Virus record (IMG/VR): IMGVR_UViG_3300028597_000008
Strand: one strand, 5' to 3'
Length of the DNA stretch: 53,894 nt
Source of the DNA: an uncultured virus (IMG/VR IMGVR_UViG_3300028597_000008)
Taxonomy: Duplodnaviria; Heunggongvirae; Uroviricota; Caudoviricetes
In this document: piece after piece, positions 14,667 to 36,859 of the stretch
Position numbering within the stretch: the stretch's first letter is position 1
Layout: each line of letters opens with the position of its first letter
Translations under genes and position numbers: made by a program
The notes under the pieces: generated by a model
What the model was told of the DNA's origin: nothing
The model's input: only the letters and a program-made list of their open reading frames with translations
Database searches by the model: none

Positions 14667-14753
14667 TTGACATAGGGGCGCCAGCGCTGTACCATGGGCG
14701 ATACGGGCGAGGTGTGCCCGGTGATGATCTACTCACACGATAACGGAAGTTGA
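14667..14753 (+). promoter_or_regulatory. Sigma70-type promoter plus conserved leader, copy 1
   Basis: TTGACA-17-TACCAT; CGGGCG-AGGTG-TGCCCG; CTCACACGATAACGGAAGTTGA. Confidence 0.8.
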
Positions 14754-14766
14754 AGAGGGCTACACC

Positions 14767-15141
14767 ATGAGCAAAGACGAAGGCTTTCCCGACATTCTTT
14801 TCATGTACAACAGCATTCCCGAGGAAACATCGTTTTTCCTGATTCCCGGCGAAGCTGAAATGAGCGTGAATCTGCGTAAAGCAATTCTTGGCATCGACGG
14901 TTTGATCGTAAATGCCACCGATGTTGAAAACGACGGAAAGGTTTGGAAGCACTGGGCGTATGTTCTCGCCGCCCTTACCGTAAAAGCCGAACATCTGGAC
15001 GCCGACAACGAGTTCGACCAGAACCGTTTCCACGGCCATCTGTTGCCGTTCAAACTGCCTGACGAAAAGTTGGGTGACGGCGGTACGAAAATCGAAACCA
15101 CTGGTGATTTGGTTTTGGTTCGTTCCGGCATCATCATGTAA
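14767..15141 (+). CDS. Hypothetical protein
   Basis: GAGGG RBS. Confidence 0.75.
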   Translation: MSKDEGFPDILFMYNSIPEETSFFLIPGEAEMSVNLRKAILGIDGLIVNATDVENDGKVWKHWAYVLAALTVKAEHLDADNEFDQNRFHGHLLPFKLPDEKLGDGGTKIETTGDLVLVRSGIIM

Positions 15142-15158
15142 CAACGCAACACGCAACA

Positions 15159-15191
15159 ATGCGGAATCGGTCGTGGCAATTGATTCTGCAT
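15159..15191 (+). other. Intergenic hairpin, possible variant of the TG-NNS-ATY family
   Basis: ATGCGGAATCGGT/ATTGATTCTGCAT; A-U replaces the family U.G pair; 29 nt before ATG. Confidence 0.5.
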
Positions 15192-15220
15192 CCTAATCCA
15201 GCCACAAGTGAGAAAAAGAA

Positions 15221-15550
15221 ATGACTGTAAAAATTGACCAAGTACGCATCGAAGAACGTGTCGAAGCAATCCTGCACGAATTCAATTCGGATAGCACACG
15301 CACTATGATGGTCGTTGACCACAATGCGCTTTATGAAGCGTGCCGGTTGCAACGTACCCCGAAGAAAGGTTTCGGTGAAATTGTGTCCGACACGTTGACT
15401 GGTCACAGTCTGTGCAAACGTTACGGTCATTTCGTCTACACTCAAATTGACGGTGCGTCATGGGTGTTCGTGAAAATCTGCAAAACCAGCGAATGGAAAG
15501 ATTTGTCTGCCAGTCGCATTGCTGACTTCGAAGACCTCTACAAAGAGTAA
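15221..15550 (+). CDS. Hypothetical protein
   Basis: ORF followed by terminator. Confidence 0.75.
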   Translation: MTVKIDQVRIEERVEAILHEFNSDSTRTMMVVDHNALYEACRLQRTPKKGFGEIVSDTLTGHSLCKRYGHFVYTQIDGASWVFVKICKTSEWKDLSASRIADFEDLYKE

Positions 15551-15557
15551 CCTACAG

Positions 15558-15591
15558 AAAGCCTCGCTTATATAGCGGGGCTTTTTCGTTT
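15558..15591 (+). terminator. Rho-independent terminator
   Basis: AAAGCCTCGCT-TATAT-AGCGGGGCTTT-TTCGTTT. Confidence 0.85.
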
Positions 15592-15631
15592 CTGCGCCCT
15601 TTTTCCACGCCTTCCACATTCAGGTTCTGCC

Positions 15632-16135
15632 ATGAATATTTTCGCTACACACCGTGATCCACAAATCAGCGCTCGCCAACATTGCGATGTGCATGTAATC
15701 AAAATGGTGACGGAGGCCGCACAACTTCTTTCCACCGCGCACGTCGTAATCGACAACAACGAAATCGCATATCGCAAGACGCATGAAAATCACCCGTGTG
15801 CAATTTGGGTTCGTGAGTCGTCTGCGAATTATCGTTGGGCCTACGAATTTTATTGCTGCCTGCTGGACGAATACGAATACCGATTCGACAAACAACATGC
15901 AGCCGCTCGCCATATGTACGCATTGGCACAGGTTCCAAATATTCCCGATTTGGGACTGACGCCATTTGCGCAAGCAATGCCCGAGGAACTGCAACAGGTA
16001 AACCCTCACTTCGCCTACCGCATCTATATGCGTGTAAAGCTGCGCGAATGGAACGAACGCAAACGCAAGGTACGCACCACGTTTACCCGGCGCATCGTTC
16101 CCCTGTTCCTGCATAACGTCGCAACCACGAGTTGA
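15632..16135 (+). CDS. Pyrimidine dimer DNA glycosylase / endonuclease V-like family protein
   Basis: MNIF..., HCD.HV.KM..E.AQLLSTAH and YRKTHENHPC.IW.RES..NY.W motifs. Confidence 0.8.
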   Translation: MNIFATHRDPQISARQHCDVHVIKMVTEAAQLLSTAHVVIDNNEIAYRKTHENHPCAIWVRESSANYRWAYEFYCCLLDEYEYRFDKQHAAARHMYALAQVPNIPDLGLTPFAQAMPEELQQVNPHFAYRIYMRVKLREWNERKRKVRTTFTRRIVPLFLHNVATTS

Positions 16136-16219
16136 CGGCACCGATTCGAAACGGTATCTTTTGGCTCGTGGGCAAAGTGTGCCCGAAAGAAAAGTTCTCA
16201 CGTACATAAGGAAAGTTGA
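16132..16219 (+). promoter_or_regulatory. Sigma70-type promoter plus conserved leader, copy 2
   Basis: TTGACG-17-TATCTT; GGGCA-AAGTG-TGCCC-GAAAGAAAAGTTCTCAC..ATAAGGAAAGTTGA. Confidence 0.8.
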
Positions 16220-16220
16220 T

Positions 16221-16385
16221 ATGTACCGCTCTGCCGGAATAACCCTAATGTGGTTGATGTGCGTTTTCAGTGGTTGCGGCGTCTACATTTCGTACACAAC
16301 CAAATACGCCGCACAGGGCGCGATTATTTCTGTGTTCGCGTTGATCGTCATTGCAACCACCGCGTTTCTAATCAGGAGAAAATAA
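16221..16385 (+). CDS. Small membrane protein (two hydrophobic segments)
   Basis: ATG directly after conserved leader RBS. Confidence 0.7.
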   Translation: MYRSAGITLMWLMCVFSGCGVYISYTTKYAAQGAIISVFALIVIATTAFLIRRK

Positions 16386-16386
16386 A

Positions 16387-16542
16387 ATGGAACAGGAAGC
16401 TTTGTACGTCGTCACTTACGAAAGCGGCGACACGCAAGAAGAGTACGGCGCTGATGAAGCAGACGTACGCGATTTCATTTCGCGTTGCTTCAAATTCAAA
16501 GGGCCGATCAAATCCGTCGAACTGTTCAAAGGTGAGGCATGA
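16387..16542 (+). CDS. Small hypothetical protein (51 aa, not in ORF track)
   Basis: AGGAG RBS; MEQEALYVVTYESGDTQEEY...KGEA; stop overlaps next ATG. Confidence 0.7.
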   Translation: MEQEALYVVTYESGDTQEEYGADEADVRDFISRCFKFKGPIKSVELFKGEA

Positions 16543-16853
16543 ACATGAAACGTTTCTCTGTCCCTGAAATGGATTTCGATAACGGGCGCCTGCTAAAAGT
16601 CGGTCAGCGTGTGAGTGTGAAAACTCGCCACGGCACCGAAGGTAAAGGCCGCATCACGACAATTCATTTTGGTGAAGGCCCACCACCAATGATGATGCTG
16701 GAAATGGACGCCGATACCGTTTACTCCGAAGTGTGTGAACGCGGTTGGGTTAAAGATGAAATCCGGCTGAAAGAGTTCGGCGCGTTCGGCGGTGAGATTC
16801 AAGAAATTCTTTCGGAACCGGTCGAGGCTGAAAACAAGCCACGTCTCCACTGA
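16539..16853 (+). CDS. Hypothetical protein (SH3/KOW-like start)
   Basis: D.NGRLLKVGQRVSV...G.I..I pattern. Confidence 0.7.
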   Translation: MNMKRFSVPEMDFDNGRLLKVGQRVSVKTRHGTEGKGRITTIHFGEGPPPMMMLEMDADTVYSEVCERGWVKDEIRLKEFGAFGGEIQEILSEPVEAENKPRLH

Positions 16854-16864
16854 GATAAATCATT

Positions 16865-16888
16865 CTGCACATTCTACGGAGTGTGCAG
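16865..16888 (+). repeat. Conserved intergenic hairpin H1
   Basis: CTGCACATTC-TACG-GAGTGTGCAG (cUACGg tetraloop). Confidence 0.85.
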
Positions 16889-16928
16889 GCGGATTAAACT
16901 CAAACCACAACGCAAGGAATCATACGAA

Positions 16929-17507
16929 ATGGCAATCTCCAAGAAATGGACTGTGAACGACGAACAGGGCATGAAAGACGTGCGCGCAGAAATGGCACGC
17001 CTGCAAGGTGAAATGCAAGTGTACGAGGCTGCAAAAGCCGCTGGTGAATCCGCGTACCATTTCCGTTTGACGCGGCGCAAACCGTTGCACAAAATTTTGG
17101 CCGAGTTCGAAAAGACTGAGCGCTGCCTCGTGAATCTGAATGGCTTTGATGAAGTTGTGCCTCTTTACGCATACGACGAAAACGGTCTGACCCGTATGGA
17201 AGCGCAGCCGTTGAACTTCGATCCGCGTTATGTGTTCGGCTGGTCTGAGTACGAATACAAAATCGAAAACGGCGTTTCTCTGCGTGTAGGTTTCGGTATT
17301 GAACCGAATCAGGAAGACGACGTACCGCGTTTCAGCGTTGAATTGCTGTGCAGCGGAAACGAGACGTTCCTAAAAGATCGTAAGCTGCTGTCGGACATTC
17401 CGCGCAGTGCACCGCAGAAGTACACGCACCACCAATTGACTATGGCAGTGCTGAAACGCCTGACGCAATTAGAGCAGGCTGAAACCAAACCGCGCCGCCG
17501 TCGCTAA
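16929..17507 (+). CDS. Hypothetical protein
   Basis: AAGGA RBS. Confidence 0.75.
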   Translation: MAISKKWTVNDEQGMKDVRAEMARLQGEMQVYEAAKAAGESAYHFRLTRRKPLHKILAEFEKTERCLVNLNGFDEVVPLYAYDENGLTRMEAQPLNFDPRYVFGWSEYEYKIENGVSLRVGFGIEPNQEDDVPRFSVELLCSGNETFLKDRKLLSDIPRSAPQKYTHHQLTMAVLKRLTQLEQAETKPRRRR

Positions 17508-17522
17508 AAGCAATTATGAGAG

Positions 17523-17550
17523 AACCCGCCAAGTGCGGGTTTTTTCGTTT
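17523..17550 (+). terminator. Rho-independent terminator
   Basis: AACCCGC-CAAGT-GCGGGTT-TTTTCGTTT. Confidence 0.85.
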
Positions 17551-17579
17551 GTGTAGGAACCCAAAACGGAGATTTACCC

Positions 17580-17756
17580 GTGTGGCTGAATTTGCTTCCC
17601 GCTGCATTTATGATTGCGGTGCTGCTAATCGTTGGTGGCATCATGTGGAACGAGTGGCGCAAAACAATGCGCCTGAAAGAGCATTATCGGAAACGGCGTG
17701 AAACCTTCGACGCTGAAATTGCACGCATCATGGAGAAACAAGAAAATGACCAGTAA
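17580..17756 (+). CDS. Small membrane protein (58 aa, not in ORF track)
   Basis: GGAG RBS, GTG start; MWLNLLPAAFMIAVLLIVGGIMW then charged tail. Confidence 0.65.
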   Translation: MWLNLLPAAFMIAVLLIVGGIMWNEWRKTMRLKEHYRKRRETFDAEIARIMEKQENDQ

Positions 17757-18024
17757 ACAAAATCCCGACGCACTCGACCTTCTGCGCGTTCGCCGAAATC
17801 ATTTGGCGCGCACTGATGCAGATTGCTACGTCAACCAAAAAGAGGTGAACACGGTTTGGCTGATGGAAGAGGAAATCAAACGCGGTCGTGAAGCAGAACG
17901 TCGGGCCGCAGATTACTTCGACTTCCTGAAAACTTTGAAGGAGGGTGAATATTGGGACTGGGTTACTTTCGTTGACTTCCACCACAAACGGGAAAACGAA
18001 CGGGCGGGTGAACCGGAAGACTAA
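17746..18024 (+). CDS. Hypothetical protein
   Basis: GGAG RBS. Confidence 0.7.
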   Translation: MTSKQNPDALDLLRVRRNHLARTDADCYVNQKEVNTVWLMEEEIKRGREAERRAADYFDFLKTLKEGEYWDWVTFVDFHHKRENERAGEPED

Positions 18025-18099
18025 GCCGCTTCTATACATACGCGGGCGCGTACGCACATATAGAAGGCGTACGCCCTGCAAGAAAGTTTGTGCGGCCTG

Positions 18100-18188
18100 T
18101 TGACAGGAAACGGTGAAAGCCTCATATTGCATTCACCGGGACAAAGTGTGCCCGAAAGAAAAGTTCTCACACAGATAAGGAAAGTTGA
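18100..18188 (+). promoter_or_regulatory. Sigma70-type promoter plus conserved leader, copy 3
   Basis: TTGACA-17-CATATT; CGGGACAAAGTGTGCCCG-AAAGAAAAGTTCTCACACAGATAAGGAAAGTTGA. Confidence 0.85.
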
Positions 18189-18190
18189 AC

Positions 18191-18586
18191 ATGACCGCGC
18201 AAATCTGGAAACCAACCAAAGCAGAAGCAGAACACATTCGCGCCGTTGCAAAAGCGAAAGTGTCCGGTCTGCGCAAAATCGAAGCGGGCATTCGTTGCAA
18301 TACGGTTTATGGTGGCGTTGGTCATTCGTTCAACATTGCACGTGTGACAAAAAGCCCGGATGATTACACGCTGGATACTGACCTGTTCGATTTTGCAACA
18401 TGGGCAGAATTCCGCAAAGGTGTAGAGCTTGGCGAGAACGGAAACGCCATCGTCGATTTCTACCTGCACAATCAATACGAACTCGACACCAACATCGTCG
18501 TTTATTACGAAGCTGGGCGAATTCAAAAAATCCTGTCTGTGAACGGTCACAACATCATGACCCTTGCTGGCATCCTGTCGGAGTAA
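18191..18586 (+). CDS. Hypothetical protein
   Basis: ATG after conserved leader. Confidence 0.75.
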   Translation: MTAQIWKPTKAEAEHIRAVAKAKVSGLRKIEAGIRCNTVYGGVGHSFNIARVTKSPDDYTLDTDLFDFATWAEFRKGVELGENGNAIVDFYLHNQYELDTNIVVYYEAGRIQKILSVNGHNIMTLAGILSE

Positions 18587-18593
18587 TGCAAAC

Positions 18594-18848
18594 GTGGACA
18601 AATTCGAAACTTACGTTGGTGAGGTGGCAGCGATCCTGAATCGCGAAATCAAGATGACCGATCCAATCGTCAACAACCTGTTGGCTGAATTCTTCGAAGT
18701 CGAATTGCGTTCCCCGCAAGACGCCGCCGAACAAATTCGCAATCTGGAAGAACTTGAGCGCCGCGAACGCGAAGGCTTTTCGCTCGATATCATTAACCGT
18801 CACGGCGTGCGTTCCACTATGCACTTTCCACCGTCGCGCAAACGTTGA
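18594..18848 (+). CDS. Hypothetical protein
   Basis: GGAG RBS, GTG start. Confidence 0.65.
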   Translation: MDKFETYVGEVAAILNREIKMTDPIVNNLLAEFFEVELRSPQDAAEQIRNLEELERREREGFSLDIINRHGVRSTMHFPPSRKR

Positions 18849-18855
18849 GGCAATC

Positions 18856-19113
18856 ATGCTCCTGAAAATTCTGCTGGGCCTTGTTTTGGTGTACCTGTCG
18901 TTCGGCGTTTACTTTACTGGCTTCGCTCTTTATTACATGGCGATCAATCGTTCTACGAATGAAGAGTATGCACACCAGTTCGATTCGTTCGCCGCGTACA
19001 GCTTCAAACTCAAAGTGGCGTCTGTTCTTCTGGCGATCTGGTACGGCGTTATTTGCTGGTTGCCAATCGCTGCCGGTTGGATGACACGCCCGACCAAATT
19101 CAAATTCCGTTGA
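18856..19113 (+). CDS. Membrane protein
   Basis: GAGG RBS; two hydrophobic segments. Confidence 0.7.
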   Translation: MLLKILLGLVLVYLSFGVYFTGFALYYMAINRSTNEEYAHQFDSFAAYSFKLKVASVLLAIWYGVICWLPIAAGWMTRPTKFKFR

Positions 19114-19124
19114 GATAAATTCTT

Positions 19125-19149
19125 CTGGCGATTCTAATAAAGTCGCCAG
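19125..19149 (+). repeat. Conserved intergenic hairpin H2
   Basis: CTGGCGATT-CTAATAA-AGTCGCCAG; flanks TGAGATAAAT and AACCACAACGCAA shared with H1. Confidence 0.85.
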
Positions 19150-19183
19150 TGTAATTAACCACAACGCAATGAGGACGTATCAA

Positions 19184-19927
19184 ATGGAACTGCATCACGA
19201 AAGCAACGGCAAGCAGTATGGCTTCGAAACCAAAGAAGTCGGCACCGGTTGGAACGGTGATACCGGTTTTCGTCACCGCGTGGTTTGCGAAGACGGGCGC
19301 CATTCGGGTTGGGCCGAATATACCCGCGTTTCGTTTCTGGATGACGTGGCGTGCATTTCCCCGTACTACCATGACACCAGCGACATGCGTTTGGTGACGG
19401 TTGCACAAGCGATGGCATTTATTGCCGTTGGTGAAGAAAAGCCGGAATCGGAAAGTGCAGAAGTAGACCTGCAAGAATTGTCGGAGATTCCAACGCACAT
19501 TTGGTTCCCCGGTAAATCGGTTGCGAAACGTGCACGTTCGCCTTTTGAAACGTGCTGGAAAGTTGCACCGCGTGAAAACGACGATGCGGGCACAATGACG
19601 TTCTGCGATTACGAAGGGAACGAATACTGCACCGTTTCCGGGTACGGCATTCCGAACGAACACGGTTCGATTGTTTTGCCGCTGTCTGAATACATTCTGG
19701 TTCTCGACACCGTGAATCAGGTTTGGGGAACTGGCCCTACCTTGGAAAAGGCAATCGGCGCCATGCCCAACAACATGGAAGACTTGCCGTTTACCTGTGC
19801 GGTCTACGTTTCCGACAAGCCTATGCGTGTAACCGAAAACGGCTGCATTCGTGGCACTGGCGATTCGGTTCCTGTGCAGGTACTCGCGAAAGAAGGCCGC
19901 AAGGTTAAGCCTGTGATGCCTAAGTAA
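19184..19927 (+). CDS. Hypothetical protein
   Basis: GAGGA RBS. Confidence 0.75.
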   Translation: MELHHESNGKQYGFETKEVGTGWNGDTGFRHRVVCEDGRHSGWAEYTRVSFLDDVACISPYYHDTSDMRLVTVAQAMAFIAVGEEKPESESAEVDLQELSEIPTHIWFPGKSVAKRARSPFETCWKVAPRENDDAGTMTFCDYEGNEYCTVSGYGIPNEHGSIVLPLSEYILVLDTVNQVWGTGPTLEKAIGAMPNNMEDLPFTCAVYVSDKPMRVTENGCIRGTGDSVPVQVLAKEGRKVKPVMPK

Positions 19928-19950
19928 CTGAAACAGCTAGATAAGCTTCC

Positions 19951-19980
19951 CTGTGCATTCGAATCCGTTTGAGTGCACAG
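19951..19980 (+). repeat. Conserved intergenic hairpin H3
   Basis: CTGTGCATTCGAA-TCCG-TTTGAGTGCACAG. Confidence 0.8.
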
Positions 19981-20070
19981 CGGGGCCAAACTGGCGGCAT
20001 GCCCGGTTTCCGCATGCCAAACCCGTTTCCCGGTTTCTGTAGACCATGCAAAAAAGTTTGTGCTGGCCTA

Positions 20071-20158
20071 TTGACTCTGATGCGCCTACAAGGCACTATG
20101 AATCCAGTTCGGGCAATTGTGCCTGACACAAAACTACTCACACCATAAAGGAAGTTGA
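20071..20158 (+). promoter_or_regulatory. Sigma70-type promoter plus conserved leader, copy 4
   Basis: TTGACT-17-CACTAT; CGGGCA-ATTG-TGCCTG; CTCACACCATAAAGGAAGTTGA. Confidence 0.8.
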
Positions 20159-20162
20159 CACC

Positions 20163-21332
20163 ATGACCACTACTACTCACACCGTTGCTGCTATGTTGGC
20201 TGTTGCTGTTGCCGCGCTGGAAACTCAAAACGCCGCGCACAAAAAAGAAACCGGCTCGCCGCTTTATGCACTGGGCACCGATTTGGGCAACGGCGTTAAG
20301 TTCCGCGAACTGAAAGCGTGGCTGAAAGATTTGAAAGCCAAGCAAAAAGAAGTCGCACCGGCTCCAAAAGCTGCCGAAGAAAAAGCACCGCGTACCCCGC
20401 GTGCAAAAGCTGCCGCTGCTGATACCAACGTCGGCAACGTTCGTGATCTGGAACTGAGCAAATCCAGCAACATCGAATCGGCTGTTTACAACCGCGACAC
20501 CAAAACCCTGCGCGTTACCTTCAAAAACGGTTCGGTGTACGATTACGCCAACGTCGGTATCCGCGAAGCCAACAACTTCGAAAAAGCCGAAAGCGCGGGC
20601 GTCTGGTTCAAAGAAAACATCAAGGGCCAGAAAGACACCACCAAAATCAAGGCCGCTGGCAAAACCGCTGACGCTGCACCGGCTCCAAAAGTAAAACCTG
20701 CTGCAAAAGCTGTCGAAGCAAAACCTGCTGCAAAACCTGCTGCAAAACCTGCTGCAAAAGCTGCACCGGCTGTTGAATACACCGCTTCGGAACTGCGTGG
20801 TTCGGAACTGCTGAACGGTCGCAAAGTCGAGTTGATCGCCAAAGTCGTGACCAACAAAACTACCGGCAACCGTGAAGTAATCACCGCGTCGGGCGCTCGT
20901 TACGAAATCGCCGCACTGCGCAAAAACAACCGTGGTCGTTTCGTGTTTGAAGAAACCGCCCCGGCCAAACCAGCGGCAAAGGCTGAAACTGTAAAGGACG
21001 CAAAAGCGACCGCTAAAGCCTCGGCAAAGGCTCCACGCGCCAACCGCAAAGCTGACCTGAACGATGACGCCAAAGAAGCGGCGAACAACGCTCGCAAATC
21101 GAAACCGCTGCCAGCAATGCCGAAATCGTCCGAAGTTCGCGGCCAGCAAGTGCGCGTAATCAAAGGCGCCAAGGACAAAATGGTTTTGATCGAACGCGTT
21201 GTTAACCGTGACGGCGTGCGCATGGCAATCACTGAAAACCGTTTCCCGCTTCCGTACGGCCAAATCATCGTCAACGACGGCGTGCTGACCTACACCGGCA
21301 AACTGACTGCCGAAGAGTTCCGCGCAGCCTAA
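20163..21332 (+). CDS. KTSC-domain protein with Ala/Lys/Pro-rich histone-like linkers
   Basis: SSNIESAVYNRDTKTLRVTFKNGSVYDYANV...AESAGVWFKENIKG (KTSC); KPAA repeats; strong codon bias. Confidence 0.85.
   Translation: MTTTTHTVAAMLAVAVAALETQNAAHKKETGSPLYALGTDLGNGVKFRELKAWLKDLKAKQKEVAPAPKAAEEKAPRTPRAKAAAADTNVGNVRDLELSKSSNIESAVYNRDTKTLRVTFKNGSVYDYANVGIREANNFEKAESAGVWFKENIKGQKDTTKIKAAGKTADAAPAPKVKPAAKAVEAKPAAKPAAKPAAKAAPAVEYTASELRGSELLNGRKVELIAKVVTNKTTGNREVITASGARYEIAALRKNNRGRFVFEETAPAKPAAKAETVKDAKATAKASAKAPRANRKADLNDDAKEAANNARKSKPLPAMPKSSEVRGQQVRVIKGAKDKMVLIERVVNRDGVRMAITENRFPLPYGQIIVNDGVLTYTGKLTAEEFRAA
20718..20759 (+). repeat. 12-bp coding tandem repeat (GCAAAACCTGCT)x3.5 encoding AKPA
   Basis: Direct reading. 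Confidence 0.9.
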
Positions 21333-21352
21333 CCAAACCGCTACACCTTCCA

Positions 21353-21388
21353 AACCCCCGGCGAAGAAATTCAAAGGGGGTTATTTTT
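21353..21388 (+). terminator. Probable Rho-independent terminator
   Basis: AACCCCC...GGGGGTT-ATTTTT. Confidence 0.65.
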
Positions 21389-21407
21389 GTATCTGGAGTA
21401 AAATTTT

Positions 21408-21758: not shown

Positions 21759-21776
21759 TTATTGAGGGATCAATTC

Positions 21777-22406: not shown

Positions 22407-22414
22407 GGTGGGTT

Positions 22415-23156: not shown

Positions 23157-23548
23157 TGCTGAGTCTCGTATTCTCCCTGTGCATCGGTGACGCACCGTGC
23201 AAAGAAAGTCGCGTAGCCGAGTTTTACGAAAGCGGCTATTCAACGCTGATGTGTGATGAAAACAAAATCAGCATGTCACGGGATTTGATCGGCCTGCCCG
23301 AAAATGCGCGCCGCTCTTCTTTCGAGTGCAAAGAAATGCCGACGTTCGTATCTGTGAAGTCGGAACCGGTTTCGGAACTGGTGTTTGAAGTTGTGACACC
23401 AAACGCCGAAACCAAAACACTGGCGAAGTTTTACGGCAGCGTTGGTGCACCGTTGTGCGCTCGCAATCGTGAACACTACGAACCGACATTGCAGAAAAGC
23501 GCCGAGTCATTAAAAGCGACGGCGAAAGTTTTCTGCAAGGAGGATTGA
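23156..23548 (+). CDS. Cys-containing hypothetical protein
   Basis: TAATG overlap; AAGGA RBS; internal repeat (AEFY...MC..N / AKFY...LC..N). Confidence 0.7.
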   Translation: MLSLVFSLCIGDAPCKESRVAEFYESGYSTLMCDENKISMSRDLIGLPENARRSSFECKEMPTFVSVKSEPVSELVFEVVTPNAETKTLAKFYGSVGAPLCARNREHYEPTLQKSAESLKATAKVFCKED

Positions 23549-23745
23549 TGGAAGAATGTATATCGACCACGCCATTTTATGTGGTGCTGTGTTTGATGAC
23601 GGTCGGTGCTGTCGCGATGGCTACATTAATTGTGATGCTGTCGCGCATGGTTGCCAAATCTGAAAAGCTGCGTATCGAAGCGGAATACGATTCGAAGCGT
23701 TACCAATCTGAACTGGAAGCGCTGCAAAGAAAATTCATGGGATAA
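23548..23745 (+). CDS. Small membrane protein
   Basis: GGAGGA RBS; one hydrophobic segment. Confidence 0.7.
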   Translation: MEECISTTPFYVVLCLMTVGAVAMATLIVMLSRMVAKSEKLRIEAEYDSKRYQSELEALQRKFMG

Positions 23746-23756
23746 GGAAGGTTCCA

Positions 23757-23921
23757 ATGCGGTTAGCTATCATAGGTGGTCTGGTTGTTTTCGTTGTTCT
23801 GCTGGTTTGCGGTTTCGCGTTGATCGTGTGGAACCACTACAGATTGAATCCCAAGCCAAAGCCAAAGCCTATGGCGCTGATCGAACTGAAACCGCACCCG
23901 CGTATAGACCTGCGCGTATAG
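23757..23921 (+). CDS. Small membrane protein (54 aa, not in ORF track)
   Basis: AAGGAAGG RBS; MRLAIIGGLVVFVVLLVCGFALIVW...PKPKPKP. Confidence 0.7.
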   Translation: MRLAIIGGLVVFVVLLVCGFALIVWNHYRLNPKPKPKPMALIELKPHPRIDLRV

Positions 23922-23930
23922 AAGCAAACC

Positions 23931-23976
23931 AAAGCCTGCCCGGTTCCCGTTCGTTTACGGGGCTGCGCGGGCTTTT
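23931..23976 (+). terminator. Probable terminator (long hairpin)
   Basis: AAAGCCTGC...CCCGT/ACGGG...GCGGGCTTTT. Confidence 0.6.
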
Positions 23977-23989
23977 GGTGTTTCTGCCG

Positions 23990-24078
23990 TTGACAACCTT
24001 TAGGCCGTATGGGAACATTCAATCACCGGGCCAAGTCGTGCCCGAAAGAAAAGTTCTCACACCGATAAGGAAAGTTCA
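23990..24078 (+). promoter_or_regulatory. Sigma70-type promoter plus conserved leader, copy 5
   Basis: TTGACA with weak -10 (AACATT, 18-bp spacer); CGGGC..GCCCG-AAAGAAAAGTTCTCACACCGATAAGGAAAGTTCA. Confidence 0.8.
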
Positions 24079-24080
24079 CC

Positions 24081-24230
24081 ATGGCATACGCAACCACTGC
24101 AAAACGCAAATCGGCCTTCGCTGCACCAAAGACCAATTCGTGGGATTGGGATAGCGCGATTCGCAAAGAAATCACCGAACGCGAAAAGGCAGTAACCGAA
24201 GCCGCTCGCCGTTTCCGCAAAACAATCTAA
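24081..24230 (+). CDS. Small basic protein (49 aa, not in ORF track)
   Basis: ATG after conserved leader; MAYATTAKRKSAFAAPKTNSWDWD...RRFRKTI. Confidence 0.75.
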   Translation: MAYATTAKRKSAFAAPKTNSWDWDSAIRKEITEREKAVTEAARRFRKTI

Positions 24231-24260
24231 CCTCAACCAAATTCGTAAGGATGTACCGCA

Positions 24261-24386
24261 ATGTTTAATCCAATTGTTGACCTGTGTGTTGTTCTCGCTT
24301 TCGGCGCTCTGTTGTCGATTCCGGTAATTATCGAATACCGCCGCAACAAAAACGCACCGAAGCCAACTGGCGCAACTAAAAACTGA
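24261..24386 (+). CDS. Small membrane protein (41 aa, not in ORF track)
   Basis: TAAGGA RBS; MFNPIVDLCVVLAFGALLSIPVIIEYRR. Confidence 0.65.
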   Translation: MFNPIVDLCVVLAFGALLSIPVIIEYRRNKNAPKPTGATKN

Positions 24387-24396
24387 GAGGTTCAAA

Positions 24397-24744
24397 ATGC
24401 ACACATATACAGTAACGCCGAAACGTACACACGCTGAACAAATGAACCACATGTTGGAAGACGCTCTGTCTTCTTACTACCTGCTCGTTTGTGCAGTGAA
24501 CGTTTTCCACCGTTTCGAAAGTCGCGACTACGACGAAGAAATCAATCAGGCCATCGCAAGCTACTTCCTGCGCAATGGTTCTGAAACTGTCGGGTTCGTG
24601 CACTTCGCGCAAAAAGATTGCGACCCGGTGCCGAATTTCGAAGTCGTCAAAGATAACCGCGTGATCGGCCAAGGTGCCGGTGTTGTAGCGTGGTGCAAAT
24701 TCTTGCAGGAACACAACCTTCTGGCCCCTTGGGTAGAGGTGTAA
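24397..24744 (+). CDS. Hypothetical protein
   Basis: GAGG RBS. Confidence 0.75.
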   Translation: MHTYTVTPKRTHAEQMNHMLEDALSSYYLLVCAVNVFHRFESRDYDEEINQAIASYFLRNGSETVGFVHFAQKDCDPVPNFEVVKDNRVIGQGAGVVAWCKFLQEHNLLAPWVEV

Positions 24745-24746
24745 AC

Positions 24747-24905
24747 ATGAACGTCAATGAAGCACGAATTCGCACAGAAAAAGAAGCGCGGGAATTTGCA
24801 GCGGTTCGCGTAAAGAACGGGTACGACATTGTGATTGTTGCGTACGATGATCGTCCCAAATATCTGCTAACGTGGCGGCGCCCGTGGTTGGTTATCTACG
24901 GGTAA
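24747..24905 (+). CDS. Small hypothetical protein
   Basis: GAGGTG RBS. Confidence 0.65.
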   Translation: MNVNEARIRTEKEAREFAAVRVKNGYDIVIVAYDDRPKYLLTWRRPWLVIYG

Positions 24906-24918
24906 CAGCTAGTTCATT

Positions 24919-24943
24919 ATGCGCATCTATAACCGGTGCGCAT
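24919..24943 (+). repeat. Conserved intergenic hairpin H4
   Basis: ATGCGCATC-TATAACC-GGTGCGCAT; outer GTTC/GAAC. Confidence 0.85.
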
Positions 24944-24974
24944 GCGGAACGAAACTGAATCAGGAGGCAACAAA

Positions 24975-25271
24975 ATGTTTGAAGACATGAACGTCATGGT
25001 TGGCCTCGACTACAAAGAGCCTGCACCAGACACGGATGTAATATTGCAGGTGGGCGACGATGAATCCTACGTTAAGTACAGCGTAATCTTTTCGCCTCAA
25101 AATGGTAACGTGTCGGCAGTCGTGGTTAGCGCTATTCGCAAACCTAATGTGGAGTCGTGGGAATTTCCATGGCACCAAAACAGCCAGACACACATAAACA
25201 AATGGGATAGCGAACCGCGCCGTCCCGTATCGAACGAACTAATCATCATTATCGCGGAGTCACGGAAATGA
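24975..25271 (+). CDS. Hypothetical protein
   Basis: AGGAGG RBS. Confidence 0.75.
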   Translation: MFEDMNVMVGLDYKEPAPDTDVILQVGDDESYVKYSVIFSPQNGNVSAVVVSAIRKPNVESWEFPWHQNSQTHINKWDSEPRRPVSNELIIIIAESRK

Positions 25272-25705
25272 AAGACGCACTTTTATCTGCAATTGGTTTT
25301 CTGCCTAACTGGTACATCGCCGCGTGCCTGCTCACCGGTTTGGTGATTCTCCCAATCATGGCAGTTATCTCGTGCCGCCCGCTGTTGCGCGGTTTGAGTT
25401 ACGGCCTGTGGGAAACGGTGATTTTCTACAAGGCGGGCGTTTCGTACTGGCGCGTTTTCAAACGCCTGATGACCGCCGCGTTTATCAACTTCCCATTTTG
25501 GGGCCTGTTCAATAGCACTACCAGTTCCATCACCAATAACGCTGGTGGCTGGTACGGCATCTTTAGCTGGCGCCTAGAGAAAAGTTTCACACGCGCTCGT
25601 TCGATTCGCGAAAGCAAAGAAGCCAAAGAAAAAGCCAACAACCCTGAGCCGGTAGAAGACGCCGACGAAGAACCTTTCGAATTTGATATGGACGACGACA
25701 AATGA
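25268..25705 (+). CDS. Membrane protein with acidic tail
   Basis: ATGA overlap; hydrophobic segments. Confidence 0.7.
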   Translation: MKDALLSAIGFLPNWYIAACLLTGLVILPIMAVISCRPLLRGLSYGLWETVIFYKAGVSYWRVFKRLMTAAFINFPFWGLFNSTTSSITNNAGGWYGIFSWRLEKSFTRARSIRESKEAKEKANNPEPVEDADEEPFEFDMDDDK

Positions 25706-26145
25706 TTTTTCTGGCCGCGTTGACCGAAGGTGAATTGACCCGCGATGATTTCTTGCGCTACGTCGGTTCGAATCCAGTGCATGCTTCAATTCGTTTTGAC
25801 GGCAAAATTGAACTGGCCGGTCAAAGCGTGCCAACTGGCAACATGAAACGTTTCATTTGGCGTATGCGTGACGATGCTGTCACCAGCAACGATATTGCGG
25901 TCGTGGTGATTTTTAACCAGACACGCGAAAAGCACAGTTTCAACGAATACCAGTTTGCCTATAATCGCCGACTGCCTGAAATCAATTCGTACATGGACAC
26001 GCTCAGAAGTGCGACAAGCACAAACGAGGTTGACCGGTACGAAACCGACGAAGGCAATCTGGTTTACATCCTGCGCAATTGCGACACAAGCGTGTTGAGT
26101 GAAGCATTCAGCAAGCACAGTCGCAAGACCATTCAGAAAGTGTAA
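25702..26145 (+). CDS. Hypothetical protein
   Basis: ATGA overlap. Confidence 0.7.
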   Translation: MIFLAALTEGELTRDDFLRYVGSNPVHASIRFDGKIELAGQSVPTGNMKRFIWRMRDDAVTSNDIAVVVIFNQTREKHSFNEYQFAYNRRLPEINSYMDTLRSATSTNEVDRYETDEGNLVYILRNCDTSVLSEAFSKHSRKTIQKV

Positions 26146-26154
26146 AGGTGACGT

Positions 26155-26379
26155 ATGTTCGACAAAGAAGAGTTAACCGAGGAACAAATCTGCTGGGCAT
26201 GGTTGGCGGATCATGAAAACGTCGCCAGCGCGTCTAGCGATTTTCACGTGTTCCGGGTGACGTGGTACGTTGACGGTTTCGGTCGCTGCGAAACAAAAGC
26301 ACCGACGTTGCTGGCCGCTGTTAAAAGCGCGATGACAACCACGTATAAGGGAACTGAATATTTTCCGGGGAAGGTGTAA
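26155..26379 (+). CDS. Hypothetical protein
   Basis: AAGGTG RBS. Confidence 0.7.
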   Translation: MFDKEELTEEQICWAWLADHENVASASSDFHVFRVTWYVDGFGRCETKAPTLLAAVKSAMTTTYKGTEYFPGKV

Positions 26380-26939
26380 TGAGCGCAAAACTTTACGGTT
26401 GGCTAACCAATCCCGAAAACGAAGTGGTGCCAAGCTACGATAGCAGCAAAGAGAAATATGTCGTGGAATGGCACACTGACCACGGACGCATTAGCGCCTG
26501 TGCCGAAACCCTCGATGGTGCAATTCGCAAAGCGTACGAAATCGCGAAAAACCCAAACCCGGAAGAACGTCGGCGCCTTGCGTATATGCCAACCGCAAAC
26601 ACGAGCAACACGGCGTGGTCTACTGGCAACCGAAACGGTAAATGGGGCTGGTACGGCTACGTTAAAATTCAAACGGAACTGGATGCGGAGGAAATTGATT
26701 TCACGCCGCCGAAATTACCGAAGGGTTGGAAATTCAACGAATTCGGCTCAAGCATTCGCCGCGCCAAGTGCAACAAGCGTATGGCCTATCTAGACCAGTG
26801 CGGCCATTCACAGTGGCGTTTTGGTTTCGAAGTTGTAGCCGACACAAAAGAAATCTGGATGGATGGCGACCGCGCAATCTTCAATGCGCTGTGCGAGTCC
26901 GTAGGTGAAGTAGAACGAGCGCATTTCATTATTGAGTGA
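26379..26939 (+). CDS. Hypothetical protein
   Basis: TAATG overlap. Confidence 0.75.
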   Translation: MSAKLYGWLTNPENEVVPSYDSSKEKYVVEWHTDHGRISACAETLDGAIRKAYEIAKNPNPEERRRLAYMPTANTSNTAWSTGNRNGKWGWYGYVKIQTELDAEEIDFTPPKLPKGWKFNEFGSSIRRAKCNKRMAYLDQCGHSQWRFGFEVVADTKEIWMDGDRAIFNALCESVGEVERAHFIIE

Positions 26940-26950
26940 GCATTACGTCT

Positions 26951-26970
26951 GCACATTCTTGCGAGTGTGC
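26951..26970 (+). repeat. Conserved intergenic hairpin H5
   Basis: GCACATTC-TTGC-GAGTGTGC; outer GCATT.CG/CGAATGC. Confidence 0.85.
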
Positions 26971-27016
26971 TTTCGAATGCAAAACCAAATCAACCATAGG
27001 TACAAGGAAAGATATC

Positions 27017-27412
27017 ATGCCATGCAATTGTGACCACATGGAACCAACCCAAAAAGAAACCCTGCTGCGCGCCGCCGCGAACAATCAGGTTTACGTTCGC
27101 ACCAAATTGAAAATGACGGTGCCTGCGTGGCTCAAGCGTGATGCCAAAGACATTTACGCAAAGGATGAACGCAGCGAAACCGAACTGTGCAAAATCCTGA
27201 CCGACCTCGGCAAAGCCAAGCGTGACGAACTGCTTTACGCCGATGCGAAAGACGCCAAAATGCGCGACGTCGCAACGTGGTGGGAAAAGCACGAAAAGGC
27301 CGACAAGGCGCGCAAGCTGACGGAAAAGAAACTGCGTACACAAAAAGCGCAGAAAGCCGAAGCGCTGGCAAAACTTTCGCCTGCTGATAAAAAAGCGCTG
27401 GGGTTGAAATGA
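27017..27412 (+). CDS. Lys-rich hypothetical protein
   Basis: AAGGA RBS; MPC..D start, WW..H..AD motif, A.AKLS..DK.ALGL end. Confidence 0.75.
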   Translation: MPCNCDHMEPTQKETLLRAAANNQVYVRTKLKMTVPAWLKRDAKDIYAKDERSETELCKILTDLGKAKRDELLYADAKDAKMRDVATWWEKHEKADKARKLTEKKLRTQKAQKAEALAKLSPADKKALGLK

Positions 27413-27594
27413 AAGATCAGTTAGGAACAGAAATTGAGAGCGGCGATACCGTCGCGCTCACCAACAGTAGCCACAACCTTTACACGGGCGTGGTTACGAA
27501 AGTCACAACCAAAGTAATTCACATCGGGCCAGATTGCTATCGTCGCCCTTGCGGTGTGATCGTCATTAAGAAGGCAAACCATGAACCTGTATGA
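27409..27594 (+). CDS. Small KOW/SH3-like protein
   Basis: MKDQLGTEIESGDTVAL...GVV.K.T.K pattern. Confidence 0.65.
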   Translation: MKDQLGTEIESGDTVALTNSSHNLYTGVVTKVTTKVIHIGPDCYRRPCGVIVIKKANHEPV

Positions 27595-27901
27595 AAAAGA
27601 ATGCAACGGTTCTCAACGCCGCACGGCTACGACGAAATTTGTTGTGAGCCGTTGGTACATTCCCGGTGGCTATCAATATGACTCGGCGTGCAACATCGAC
27701 ATTTTCTTCGACACCGAAGAGGATGCAGCGAAGTACGCCAAGGAATACGAAATGCCGCCAGAAATGGCGAGCATGTTCCCCATCGACAAACACGACGATA
27801 TCGTTGCACGTGTCAGCAAGAATTACCGCGAATACAAAAAGCGGTTCTGGCGCGATTTCCGCAACGAAGATCGCCCACTCGAATTCCGCCGTGAGGATTA
27901 A
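27581..27901 (+). CDS. Hypothetical protein
   Basis: AAGG RBS; overlap. Confidence 0.7.
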   Translation: MNLYEKECNGSQRRTATTKFVVSRWYIPGGYQYDSACNIDIFFDTEEDAAKYAKEYEMPPEMASMFPIDKHDDIVARVSKNYREYKKRFWRDFRNEDRPLEFRRED

Positions 27902-27903
27902 TC

Positions 27904-28617
27904 ATGAACATTACTGCACCGATGGTAATTCCTGAAAACCGTCAACTGACCCTCCAACAACGCCGCGCCAATTTCACCAAAGACCGCAACGACTTCGAAC
28001 GTGCAATGGCGCTAGTCAACACCAAAGCCCCGGAATACTTTTCGCAGTTCCGCACCGACACCGGTTACAACCAGCCGCATCTACACGATACGTTTTGTGG
28101 ATGGCGTCTGAAATGCGAAGAACAGCGCGAACGTATTCATTCGACGCTGGTTAAACCGGAACCGGTGATTTTGGAACCGACGCAATTTCTCGGCAATATC
28201 CAACGCACACCGACCGTGTGGTGGGCAGATACCGAATTCAAAGCACCGAGTCGGCAAGATCATGGCGTCACTACCGGTTACGTTCTGGTGCAAGGTCGCG
28301 ACTGGCCGCAAGCTGTTGCATTGCAGCATGGTCAAATCGTTTACGAACGTTCGGCCACTGGTTCGCAAGCAGATTACGTTGATATCGTTTGCATCGGTTC
28401 ATTCGACGTTGACGACAACGGTTTCCAAACTGCGATGTTGGCAGCAGAAGAATACACGCTCAACATTATGAGCAACCGCTACGTTCACGTTAAAACGCAT
28501 TTGAGCCTGCCAGCCGTTCGCGAAGGTGGCGGTGGCCCGATTCGCTGTGAACTGGTTCGCCTCATGGTGACGCATGAGGAATTTCTGGCCGATCAAGCAC
28601 GGGGATTTCACGAATGA
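27904..28617 (+). CDS. Hypothetical protein
   Basis: GAGGA RBS. Confidence 0.75.
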   Translation: MNITAPMVIPENRQLTLQQRRANFTKDRNDFERAMALVNTKAPEYFSQFRTDTGYNQPHLHDTFCGWRLKCEEQRERIHSTLVKPEPVILEPTQFLGNIQRTPTVWWADTEFKAPSRQDHGVTTGYVLVQGRDWPQAVALQHGQIVYERSATGSQADYVDIVCIGSFDVDDNGFQTAMLAAEEYTLNIMSNRYVHVKTHLSLPAVREGGGGPIRCELVRLMVTHEEFLADQARGFHE

Positions 28618-29087
28618 TGCGTTATAGCCTTTCCGTTGGAAACGTGCGTCATGTAATCGTCGGCAATTTCGACGAATTGTCTTTGCCGGTTTTGCAGCGC
28701 CTATTTAAATTCGGCGGGCATCACGATTACAAACACGAAGCACTGCAAATCTCGCAAGGTGGTCAAGTTGCTTTGCGCGGTTGGCAGTGCCGGGAATTCC
28801 TCGAAGACGACGAAGCCCCGCGTGATGAAAATGTGAGCCGTGGCGATAACAACATTATCGCTGCACTCGCAAATAGTCTCGACACCGAGTTTCGTTTGCA
28901 CGTGTTCGAAGACTACGAAGAAAAGATTGTTCTGCAAGACGCGCTGGATGAACTGGAATTGGACAGCGACAATTTGCGGGACGCTCTGAACAACGCAACC
29001 GATGCCGTACGTAAAGCCTACAACGAATTCTTTACGCACAACGGCCTCAAACAATTACTCAAAGAGAAAATCAACAAAGCGCCTTAA
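28614..29087 (+). CDS. Hypothetical protein
   Basis: ATGA overlap. Confidence 0.75.
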   Translation: MMRYSLSVGNVRHVIVGNFDELSLPVLQRLFKFGGHHDYKHEALQISQGGQVALRGWQCREFLEDDEAPRDENVSRGDNNIIAALANSLDTEFRLHVFEDYEEKIVLQDALDELELDSDNLRDALNNATDAVRKAYNEFFTHNGLKQLLKEKINKAP

Positions 29088-29105
29088 CGCGCAAGGGAGC
29101 CACAC

Positions 29106-29816
29106 ATGGTAAACGTAGACGGCAGCACACTGCTTTGGGTTTCGGCATTTGCATTGATTGGTATCGTGGTTATGGTGAAACCGATTTACAAGGCCACCAC
29201 GATTTTCTGGCAATCGGTCTGGTTCCTTATGGCCGTGCGTAAATATCGTGGCAACATGCGTGATTCGTTGCGTCGTCTGCCTAAGCTCATGGTACGTAAA
29301 TACAAAACCGGAAAGGCTGCGGACAATCTGCGCCCGCATCTGGTTTACCATTTCGAAAGCGGTGGGCGTGTTGAAAACAAAGTGACGCAAGATCAGCCGT
29401 GGCTAACCGCATATGCAAACTGGTTGATAGCTTCGAAAAAAGACCCGGAGCAAAGTGGCATGCATTTCACCATGCGTAGCAGTGTGGTTGAAAAGCATCG
29501 CTACACAATGCACCGCACGTGGTTAACTTTGCTGGATGATCGCCATCCGGTAATTCGGTTGACCTACGATCCAGACAGCACGATTACCGAAATGCTCGCA
29601 AATGAAATGTGGGCGTTCCTGATGACGACTGCTTTCTACGCGTCCGATATTAAATATATCGTGATCGAGAATTGCCCGGATATCGTCGGATACATCAGCA
29701 CCGCCCCGTGCGAAAAGATTATTGCAAACGGCGTGGAATGCACAATCTTCGCACCATCACAGCACCTACTTAAAACAATTGGCGTTGAGGCTCCAAATGA
29801 AATACTACCTGCATAA
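29106..29816 (+). CDS. Membrane-anchored hypothetical protein
   Basis: GGGAG RBS; N-terminal hydrophobic segment. Confidence 0.75.
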   Translation: MVNVDGSTLLWVSAFALIGIVVMVKPIYKATTIFWQSVWFLMAVRKYRGNMRDSLRRLPKLMVRKYKTGKAADNLRPHLVYHFESGGRVENKVTQDQPWLTAYANWLIASKKDPEQSGMHFTMRSSVVEKHRYTMHRTWLTLLDDRHPVIRLTYDPDSTITEMLANEMWAFLMTTAFYASDIKYIVIENCPDIVGYISTAPCEKIIANGVECTIFAPSQHLLKTIGVEAPNEILPA

Positions 29817-30159
29817 CAGCAGCAAGCTCGTTAACGCAATCGGCACGCAAACTTTTGGCCGGTTGATTCGCGAACTGGAAAAGGACGGATACGAAGCTGC
29901 GCAGATTTTGAAAAAGATGCGTGCCGGGGCTTTGAATGAAAAGCCGTACCAATGCACCGAAGCGGAAACCAACGCTATTCGAATCGCACGCGGGGCCACG
30001 CCTTGGATACGCAACGTGCTGACCTCTGAATGGTTGGGCGATGGCGTCTCTAATCGCCTCACGCTAAGCCGCTGGCCCTTCCGCCCACCACGCCGCCACA
30101 AGGCAGTCATTAAAGGCTGCGTTACCTGCCCACACTGCGCGCACGAGTTCGCACCCTGA
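29797..30159 (+). CDS. Hypothetical protein with C-terminal CPHC
   Basis: GAGG RBS. Confidence 0.7.
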   Translation: MKYYLHNSSKLVNAIGTQTFGRLIRELEKDGYEAAQILKKMRAGALNEKPYQCTEAETNAIRIARGATPWIRNVLTSEWLGDGVSNRLTLSRWPFRPPRRHKAVIKGCVTCPHCAHEFAP

Positions 30160-30167
30160 TAGGGCCG

Positions 30168-30256
30168 TTGACTTCCTTAGTCGTTTGGGTACAATGAAAG
30201 CCACTGGGGCAAGTTGTGCCCGAACGTTTATAACTCACACCGATAAAGGAAGTTGA
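30168..30256 (+). promoter_or_regulatory. Sigma70-type promoter plus conserved leader, copy 6
   Basis: TTGACT-16-TACAAT; GGGCA-AGTTG-TGCCC; CTCACACCGATAAAGGAAGTTGA. Confidence 0.8.
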
Positions 30257-36822: not shown

Positions 36823-36859
36823 TTGAGTGAATCCAACCAAAACCAAAGAGAGAAAAATC

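Follow-up and report, generated by a model that had tools for sequence, protein, structure and literature searches.

The window analysed here, a 53,894-nucleotide (nt) stretch of DNA from the uncultured virus IMGVR_UViG_3300028597_000008, carries six predicted sigma70-type promoters, each followed by a predicted hairpin and then by a short conserved box. This promoter-proximal element is the subject of the present analysis. A first-pass annotation, made from the letters alone, had described the region behind each promoter as one structured leader of about 55 nt. Comparison with related phages suggests instead that the leader comprises two separate signals, a 5' RNA hairpin and a DNA box with fixed spacing, and that the box is probably a double-stranded site for a phage-encoded regulator.

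Six promoter units in the window

All six TTGAC promoters, hairpins and boxes were found at the positions first proposed, on the plus strand. The first promoter (14667..14695, TTGACA-17-TACCAT) is followed by a hairpin at 14704..14720, predicted with a probability of 1.00, and by a box at 14733..14751 (TCAC-N8-GGAAGTT); the start codon at 14767 uses a separate GAGGG. In the second unit, a TTGACG-17-TATCTT promoter (16132..16160) precedes a predicted hairpin at 16169..16185 and a box at 16198..16217 (TCAC-N8-GGAAAGTT), with the ATG of a 54-amino-acid (aa) open reading frame (ORF) at 16221. The third promoter (18100..18128, TTGACA-17-CATATT) leads into a bulged hairpin (18137..18154, predicted with a probability of 0.72), a box at 18167..18186 and the ATG (18191) of a gene orthologous to Lu11 gp020, which carries this element as well. 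The fourth (20071..20099, TTGACT-17-CACTAT) is followed by a predicted hairpin with a G·U pair in its stem (20110..20125), a box at 20138..20156 and the ATG (20163) of a KTSC-domain gene. For the fifth promoter (23990..24019), TTGACA is followed after 17 or 18 bp by GAACAT or AACATT, then by a predicted hairpin at 24027..24044, a box at 24057..24076 and the ATG (24081) of a 49-aa ORF. The sixth unit consists of a TTGACT-16-TACAAT promoter (30168..30195), a predicted hairpin at 30207..30221, a box at 30235..30254 (TCAC-N9-GGAAGTT) and an ATG at 30259.

The identity of a 23-mer at 16179, 18148 and 24038 and the G·U stem pairs at 14704 and 20110 were confirmed. Of the hairpin 5' arms, proposed as GGGC(A), that of the 18.1-kb copy is GGGAC, with a bulged A, and that of the 24.0-kb copy is GGGCC. 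The pattern TGCCYG-N11-CTCACR-N7/8-GGAA(A)GTT had six matches in the window, all on the plus strand, while 100 dinucleotide shuffles gave a mean of 0.00 and a maximum of 0. Both a matrix scan of the two strands and a pattern search found no copy in the window beyond these six. The promoters alone were not above chance in a consensus scan (12 found vs. 15.1 expected), and we regard the predicted promoters as real because they are linked to the box and present in orthologues.

The element in related phages

Gene order and protein matches identify the window as the early region of a Lu11-like Pseudomonas jumbo phage, a remote member of the Lu11/PaBG group. The order of its genes is that of a Lu11 stretch from the endolysin-like gene and the LytTR regulator onward; the nearest relatives of the 685-aa protein encoded at 43052 are in the Pseudomonas phages Lu11, pf16 and HRDY3 (53–55%), and the KTSC protein had matches in Lu11 only in a protein search. 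At the DNA level, alignment of the window to any of five relatives reached only 7–9%. A nucleotide search of the window region against phage records returned no match, and the exact 23-mer was absent from the viral contigs searched. In the RNA-library run X1, a relative mostly 85–95% alike was present, as contigs, across 29 of 30 bins.

The element is present in Lu11, HRDY3 and several viral contigs of 307–314 kb. A matrix was built from 42 promoter-linked downstream copies and applied with a cut-off of 13 bits. Matches above this cut-off numbered 11 in Lu11, 12 in HRDY3, 13 in G003, 10 in G004 and 13 in G002, the five complete relatives, nearly all of them at host sigma70 promoters. Reversed controls with the same matrix gave one match in G004 and none in the other four. 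Moreover, the KTSC gene and the 49-aa ORF are each boxed in six of six genomes, indicating that orthologues keep the element. In a loose metagenome scan, only five of 119 loci scored above 20, two of them again G003 sequence, and the remainder was mostly noise; a scan for the upstream-inverted pattern described below gave six of 118 loci above a score of 10, four of which were family members. About 20 of 48 pattern loci were treated as chance matches, as no promoter context was seen by eye.

The 5' hairpin

For the following comparisons, 58 downstream copies were used (six from the window and 52 from relatives), including orthologues that do not count as independent of one another. The first paired base lies 0–2 nt from the predicted start in 44 of 58 copies, and the predicted fold reached −4 kcal/mol or better in 51. 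Among 38 distinct stems, whose 5' arms were picked for best pairing, one outer pair is C-G in 21 and U-G in 13, and the other is G-C in 25 and G-U in 11; thus, the outer positions hold 24 G·U pairs and no A·C or C·A pair. In addition, an inner G-C pair is swapped to C-G in five of the 38 stems, and the arms of the hairpin are exchanged in one G002 copy. The G·U bias and the compensatory swaps indicate that the hairpin is an RNA-level feature, apparently conserved as a structure. The leaders of PaBG have unrelated sequences, and four of seven fold to −6 or better. A 5'-terminal stem-loop can slow RNA decay, and the hairpin is most likely a stabiliser that would shield the RNA 5' end.

An alternative fold, in which GUG at the loop–stem junction pairs with the conserved CAC, had been suggested by the first-pass annotation and did not withstand comparison. 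Of the 58 copies, 22 carry GTG at that junction, whereas TCAC is present in 56 and TTAC in the other two. In the six window copies, the GUG/CAC pairing had a probability of at most 0.006 and the hairpin one of 0.72–1.00, and forcing the alternative was 2.7–9.4 kcal/mol worse. Scans with Rfam and for tRNAs gave no match.

The downstream box

The box has the form TCAC-N8-G(G/T/C)AAGTT and is rigid, with a predicted position of about +33 to +51; across the 58 copies, TCAC is at predicted +28 to +49 (median, +33). When spacers of 5–10 were allowed in G004 and G005, the same length was recovered in 12 of 12 matches, one of which has no promoter and may be a chance match. In the window, GTT lies one base further in four of six copies. 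TCAC and AAGTT remain fixed while the linker diverges, and this holds both for copies standing alone in the replication region and for inverted ones. The hairpin-to-box distance is mostly 12 nt (range, 11–14), and the 5' arm may be lost or replaced while the box is retained.

The earlier view that conservation of the box goes beyond ribosome binding was borne out. The copy at 14.7 kb keeps the box although a separate GAGGG precedes the ATG at 14767, the spacer is rigid, and GGA is replaced by GTA in five and by GCA in three of 58 copies. An ATG lies within 11 nt of the box in 44 of 58 copies and none is as close in the other 14, while other starts in the window have GGAA plus GT upstream in only two of 55 cases. 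The box thus appears usually to double as a ribosome-binding site through its GGA, and to be kept without that role too. The box may be read as a dyad, ACTYAC-N8-GKAAGT, which suits the Lu11 group and fails in PaBG, or as a 17–18-bp direct repeat, which suits PaBG and the inverted copies. Comparison with consensus sequences alone led us to drop sigma54, sigma28, AlgU, HrpL, IHF, Fis, Vfr, the las box, dif, boxA and the consensus pause.

Inverted boxes upstream of promoters

The matrix derived from the 42 downstream copies alone also finds inverted copies beside the −35 element in G003, G002, Lu11 and HRDY3. In total, nine Lu11-type promoters at two loci have an inverted, untranscribed box just 5' of the −35. 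Locus A (HRDY3, G002 and G003) has a TTGAC-17-TACCTT promoter, with the inverted box behind a terminator and 4 bp before the −35; in all three genomes having the locus this is the sole box, and no downstream box was found there. At locus B, which follows a recA-like gene, the inverted box stands 2 bp 5' of a weak −35 and a direct box lies downstream. This locus is double-boxed in four of the five complete genomes (Lu11, HRDY3, G002 and G003) and in the sequences L411 and L450; G004 has a strong −35 (TTGACG) at this locus and no adjacent inverted box.

PaBG provided a second, diverged example. The Lu11-group matrix gave no match above 13 bits in PaBG, and the Lu11-type pattern occurred only at chance level in PaBG and Yoloswag; the PaBG version was located only by way of the PaBG promoters. 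A box of the form GGTTAY-R-N8-TNAGGT lies behind nine of them, at 42–44 bp from the −10, as compared with 41–43 bp in the Lu11 group. Seven of the nine promoters are enclosed by an inverted pair, 78–80 bp apart. A matrix made from the nine downstream PaBG copies placed all seven inverted partners among the top nine non-seed hits in 516,222 positions, and a scan for the PaBG-type pattern found three further pairs among 126 viral loci. A mirrored −10 that could serve an antisense promoter was found at none of the seven PaBG pairs.

The upstream box keeps a fixed distance from the −10 within each class: 24–25 bp at locus B (six of six), 27 bp at locus A (three of three) and 35–36 bp in PaBG (seven of seven). 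Both this distance and that between paired boxes are larger in PaBG by about one helix turn, the pair distance being 66–69 bp at locus B (six sequences) and 78–80 bp in PaBG. This orientation independence, the rigid spacing and the step of about one helix turn suggest that the box is a double-stranded protein site.

Candidate regulators

A gene encoding a LytTR-only DNA-binding protein (13972..14442, plus strand; Pfam E = 1e-9) lies directly 5' of the first boxed promoter, as it does in six of six Lu11-type genomes (gp024 in Lu11), and its product is a candidate binder. LytTR boxes are 9-bp direct repeats with a GTT core and a 21-bp period. In three window copies, exactly those with the extra A, AAAGTT occurs twice with a 21-bp period (16191–16217, 18160–18186 and 24050–24076). 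The other window copies lack the first AAAGTT repeat, and the 21-bp repeat was not seen in the 42-copy matrix of the relatives. Searches of viral contigs confirmed no LytTR relative.

Two sigma-like proteins are the only transcription proteins found in all complete genomes. The second of these (G004 L162:13231-14358; PaBG gp112; Lu11 gp184) occurs in all seven complete genomes, and its gene belongs to the operon at the double-boxed locus B. The model of this protein has sigma2-like and C-terminal helical domains (predicted local distance difference test score [pLDDT] of 79), and comparison with sigma domains gave a best Z of 8.4, with a root-mean-square deviation of 3.2 over 79 residues. A single-sequence fold reached a pLDDT of only 36.5, a Foldseek search with the model gave a best E of 0.05 and nothing under 0.001, and a PDB sequence search with a profile of the protein gave no match. 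The middling scores of the model are in line with a weak sigma call in the accessible part of the PaBG paper (PMC7412058).

Other features of the window and its relatives

Several observations accompany the boxed genes. The 49-aa ORF (24081–24230; starting MAYATTAK) falls below the 50-aa cut-off of the ORF list; as it is the first gene behind the box in six of six genomes, it probably encodes a highly expressed early protein. In the ORF at 20163–21332, the KTSC domain lies inside a long Lys/Ala/Pro-rich protein; in the relatives, another KTSC gene is located close to the terminase. At the orthologues of promoter 30168 (HRDY3 282094, G002 301428 and G003 141845), a terminator-like hairpin is built on the GGGAAG of the box, with the gene about 60 nt further on; it may be an attenuator or give rise to a short RNA. 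Tandem boxed promoters occur at Lu11 117341–117622, HRDY3 148559–148290, G003 7480–7210 and G004 238966–238645. The promoters are separated by a non-coding, inverted-repeat-rich stretch of 170–225 nt, possibly a small RNA, and are followed by a long acidic and basic protein. In Yoloswag (W04, ~204,000–251,000), a different box, RCAAA-N5-GGTCAAAA, scores above 20 at 12 places. Most of these are a constant distance 5' of promoters with a TG-extended −10 and no −35, and the box looks like an activator site.

Elsewhere in the window, three related TGCACATT...AGTGTGC hairpins at 16866, 26950 and 33633 stand right after stop codons without a T run and are perhaps processing or stabilising stems. The ORF at 36827–37516 encodes a fusion of an acyl carrier protein with an unknown domain, and a CTGTAAAT late-type promoter at 45134 lies ahead of the ORF at 45171. 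G004 L163:5188-5400 encodes a Tad2-like anti-Thoeris protein with homologues in the other four Lu11-type genomes and PaBG.

Discussion

On the comparative evidence above, we give a probability of about 0.8 to the reading that the box works at the DNA level, as a double-stranded site for a protein. The putative binder is assigned to the phage because the motif changes between phage lineages infecting one host genus. Upon infection, host polymerase would fire the sigma70 early promoters, and the GC hairpin, within a few bases of the predicted start, would act as RNA and shield the 5' end. As the regulator accumulates, it would bind the box at about +33 to +51, and where an inverted box is present upstream of the −35 it would probably bridge both sites and enclose the promoter. 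The bound regulator would then damp or shut off the early genes together.

The direction of control is less certain than the nature of the site. Of 48 top-scoring promoters in the five genomes (score of at least 16), 44 carried the box, an upper estimate that is inflated since the promoter matrix was trained on boxed promoters. With such a proportion, the sites cannot all need a phage-made activator initially, unless it is injected. Since almost every early promoter is boxed and has to fire ahead of phage protein synthesis, shut-off is suggested. We rate repression as the main output at even odds, and the explanation as a whole, in which a 5' hairpin and a DNA box let a regulator damp the early genes together, is the best overall yet evenly balanced. 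Of the three options in the first-pass annotation, which had proposed an antitermination element, a translational control element or a shut-off operator coordinating the early genes, the last is now the best; a shared early-gene control element is supported, and a single structured RNA of 55 nt is not.

A protein acting positively from the same DNA site, either as an activator at the upstream position or as a Q-like antiterminator loaded from the DNA, is a possible but clearly less probable alternative. It would account for the lack of TTGAC at the −35 in 13 of 13 paired-box promoters and for locus B of G004, where TTGACG stands without an adjacent inverted box; by contrast, the upstream box of locus A is paired with a consensus TTGAC. 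Also against it, the PaBG promoters have TG-extended −10 elements, which work without a −35. In its favour stands the more distant relative Yoloswag, whose different box keeps a fixed distance 5' of promoters with only a −10. The 63–69-bp spread of the downstream box from the −35, with outliers at 78–83 bp, exceeds half a turn and is poor for a fixed contact with polymerase, and some of the nearly always boxed early promoters must fire first without the protein. Antitermination is favoured by the terminator-like hairpin after the KTSC gene in six of six genomes (21352..21390, plus strand, ends approximate), behind which no promoter was found for the window genes, and by the GGGAAG...CTTCCC-T4 hairpin between box and gene in three relatives. 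The earlier suggestion of antitermination may thus still be right, although its agent is more likely loaded from DNA than carried by RNA.

We consider it rather unlikely, yet worth stating, that one DNA-bound factor of an undescribed kind controls all host-polymerase promoters of the Lu11/PaBG clade. Such a factor, possibly the second sigma-like protein, would clamp the promoter from two inverted sites or ride onto polymerase from the downstream site, and would decide both shut-off and terminator read-through.

It is also improbable, somewhat more so, that the leader acts as RNA, whether as a put-like antiterminator or as a target of an RNA-binding repressor or nuclease overlapping the ribosome-binding site. 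In all six window copies and most of the rest, the leader is close to the promoter, lies on the transcribed strand and overlaps the Shine–Dalgarno sequence; the hairpin is of RNA type with GCCYG most often 12 nt before TCAC, and one boxed gene encodes a KTSC domain. However, inverted untranscribed copies in fixed phase, the rigid spacer and the lack of a second hairpin argue against it, as do the negligible GUG/CAC pairing, the absence of an Rfam match, the variable hairpin-to-box distance and the persistence of the box where the 5' arm is lost or replaced. HK022 put, to which the element had been likened, is a double hairpin of about 55–65 nt acting only as nascent RNA, which binds polymerase and suppresses termination with no need of a phage protein (PMC8632103). 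The element resembles it in being promoter-proximal, of about that length and placed at early genes read by host polymerase, but has one hairpin with no common second stem over the box, and its conserved part is flipped and untranscribed by the promoter in question at nine Lu11-type and seven PaBG promoters.

Two explanations are very unlikely. In the first, the repeats would be homology cassettes like the promoter–stem-loop (PeSL) cassettes of T4-type phages, kept by recombination and functionless beyond promoter and ribosome-binding site. PeSLs are described as a repeated sigma70 promoter, stem-loop and Shine–Dalgarno sequence in a variable early region, with the start codon at the 3' end (PMC4122927), much as here, where an ATG lies within 11 nt in 44 of 58 copies. 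As had been proposed, relatives were compared for gene differences at the repeat, and in gene content the first genes behind the boxes do vary: 53 of them form 18 clusters, with seven singletons, and the gene that comes right after the array's first promoter is a different one in HRDY3 and G003. The 23-mer shared by three window copies also fits. Membership in the PeSL class nevertheless fails on geometry, in that the PeSL stem-loop lies 5' of the promoter (PMC4122927), whereas the repeated hairpin here is at the RNA 5' end, downstream of the −10, and the box also occurs inverted. The folds predicted upstream of the window's six promoters have no stem in common. TCAC and AAGTT persist as the linker diverges, even in isolated and inverted copies, and PaBG keeps the geometry with a different sequence. 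In the second explanation, one of the two phage sigma factors would use the box as a promoter nested in the leader, with GTT as a −10 of the extracytoplasmic function type. The second sigma-like protein is universal among the complete genomes and its model resembles sigma domains, but only ~14 bp separate the halves of the box, several copies would have their start within the ribosome-binding site, and transcription from inverted copies would run into terminators or against upstream genes. Least probable of all is binding by a host regulator, which the lack of a universal phage candidate would favour, but PaBG and the Lu11 group differ in motif though both infect Pseudomonas, and the box matches no Pseudomonas consensus known to us (IHF, Fis, Vfr, Anr, LexA, GacA or AlgR).

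Several points weigh against a DNA operator with a phage-encoded regulator. No DNA-binding protein of a known family other than the two sigma-like proteins was common to all box-bearing genomes. LytTR was sought in PaBG and Yoloswag and is absent; a sigma4-type helix–turn–helix protein (gp329 in Lu11) occurs in five of five relatives but not in PaBG, Arc in four of five and PaBG (gp184 in the latter), XRE in four of five, and a PapB-like protein in three of five and the window. The window copy of this last protein is a PapB/FocB-like regulator at 37526–37852 (Pfam E = 0.001; Atlas 0.94). The underlying Pfam scan covered 96 of 160 conserved G004 proteins of at most 420 aa, with presumed-structural or already named proteins left out. 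In addition, the homology between the PaBG and Lu11 boxes consists of position and a loose TYAY...AxGTT, and neither matrix finds the other. The window itself holds downstream copies only. A site at +33 to +51 lies further downstream than repressors usually bind, and a lone site must therefore act as a roadblock. Gene blocks behind the terminators at ~15582, 17548 and 21381 have no detectable promoter, so read-through is needed; the first two correspond to an intrinsic-terminator-like hairpin with a T run at 15559..15590 and an intrinsic-terminator-like hairpin at 17516..17556 (both plus strand, ends approximate). G004 184318 resembles a genuine promoter without a box. Finally, the lack of TTGAC in the 13 paired promoters fits activation, and the counts given above are subject to the training of the promoter matrix, the dependence among orthologous copies and the picking of 5' arms.

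Known systems offer partial parallels to the proposed operator. Bipartite operators of the E. coli GalR OE/OI type flank a promoter, and one protein binds both and loops the DNA. The PaBG promoters (seven of nine) and locus B, but not the window copies, likewise have phased like sites 5' of the −35 and in the leader; unlike the GalR type, the site lacks symmetry, the majority of Lu11-group promoters have just the downstream copy, which is merged with the ribosome-binding site, and the setting is a lytic jumbo phage. The likeness to LytTR boxes lies in the GTT core, the 21-bp period of AAAGTT in three of six window copies and the LytTR gene beside the array, but the other copies are without the first repeat and PaBG has the box type without LytTR. 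In T4 MotA-box middle promoters an activator box replaces the −35, whereas the window has TTGAC at the −35 and the box downstream. A functional analogue is phi29 p4, an early protein that binds around host-polymerase promoters, represses early ones and activates one with a poor −35 (PMC3100819). Its four sites lie in one control region and overlap the −35 (PMC3100819), unlike the 9–13 dispersed promoters here, with a site 30–50 bp past the start.

No description of the element was found in the literature covered; the Lu11 genome announcement and supplementary files lay outside that coverage, and either could mention the motif. Late promoters of the CTGTAAAT type and three of the sigma70 promoters discussed here are annotated in the Lu11 GenBank record (140 of 280 kb), with hairpin and box unmarked, and the PaBG record (~251 of 258 kb) has no regulatory feature annotated. 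The PaBG paper, in its available part, uses 'promoter' once, in a general sense (PMC7412058), and transcription factors of jumbo phages are described as neglected in PMC7824862.

As judged from the sequences compared, the element appears to be a phage operator regulon with a 5' stabiliser, and neither a put-like RNA nor a PeSL. The jumbo phages of the Lu11/PaBG group carry sigma factors, and the part of PMC7412058 covered here mentions no RNA polymerase encoded by them; no account of how they time their early genes was found in the literature covered. The box would define their early regulon from sequence alone, at 9–13 sites per genome, and may serve as a short DNA bait for retrieving the regulator from two cultured phages. 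Its design would be unusual, with an operator fused to a ribosome-binding site 30–50 bp past the start and a phased inverted partner, and it suggests that what looks like a structured RNA repeat in one genome can be a DNA site.

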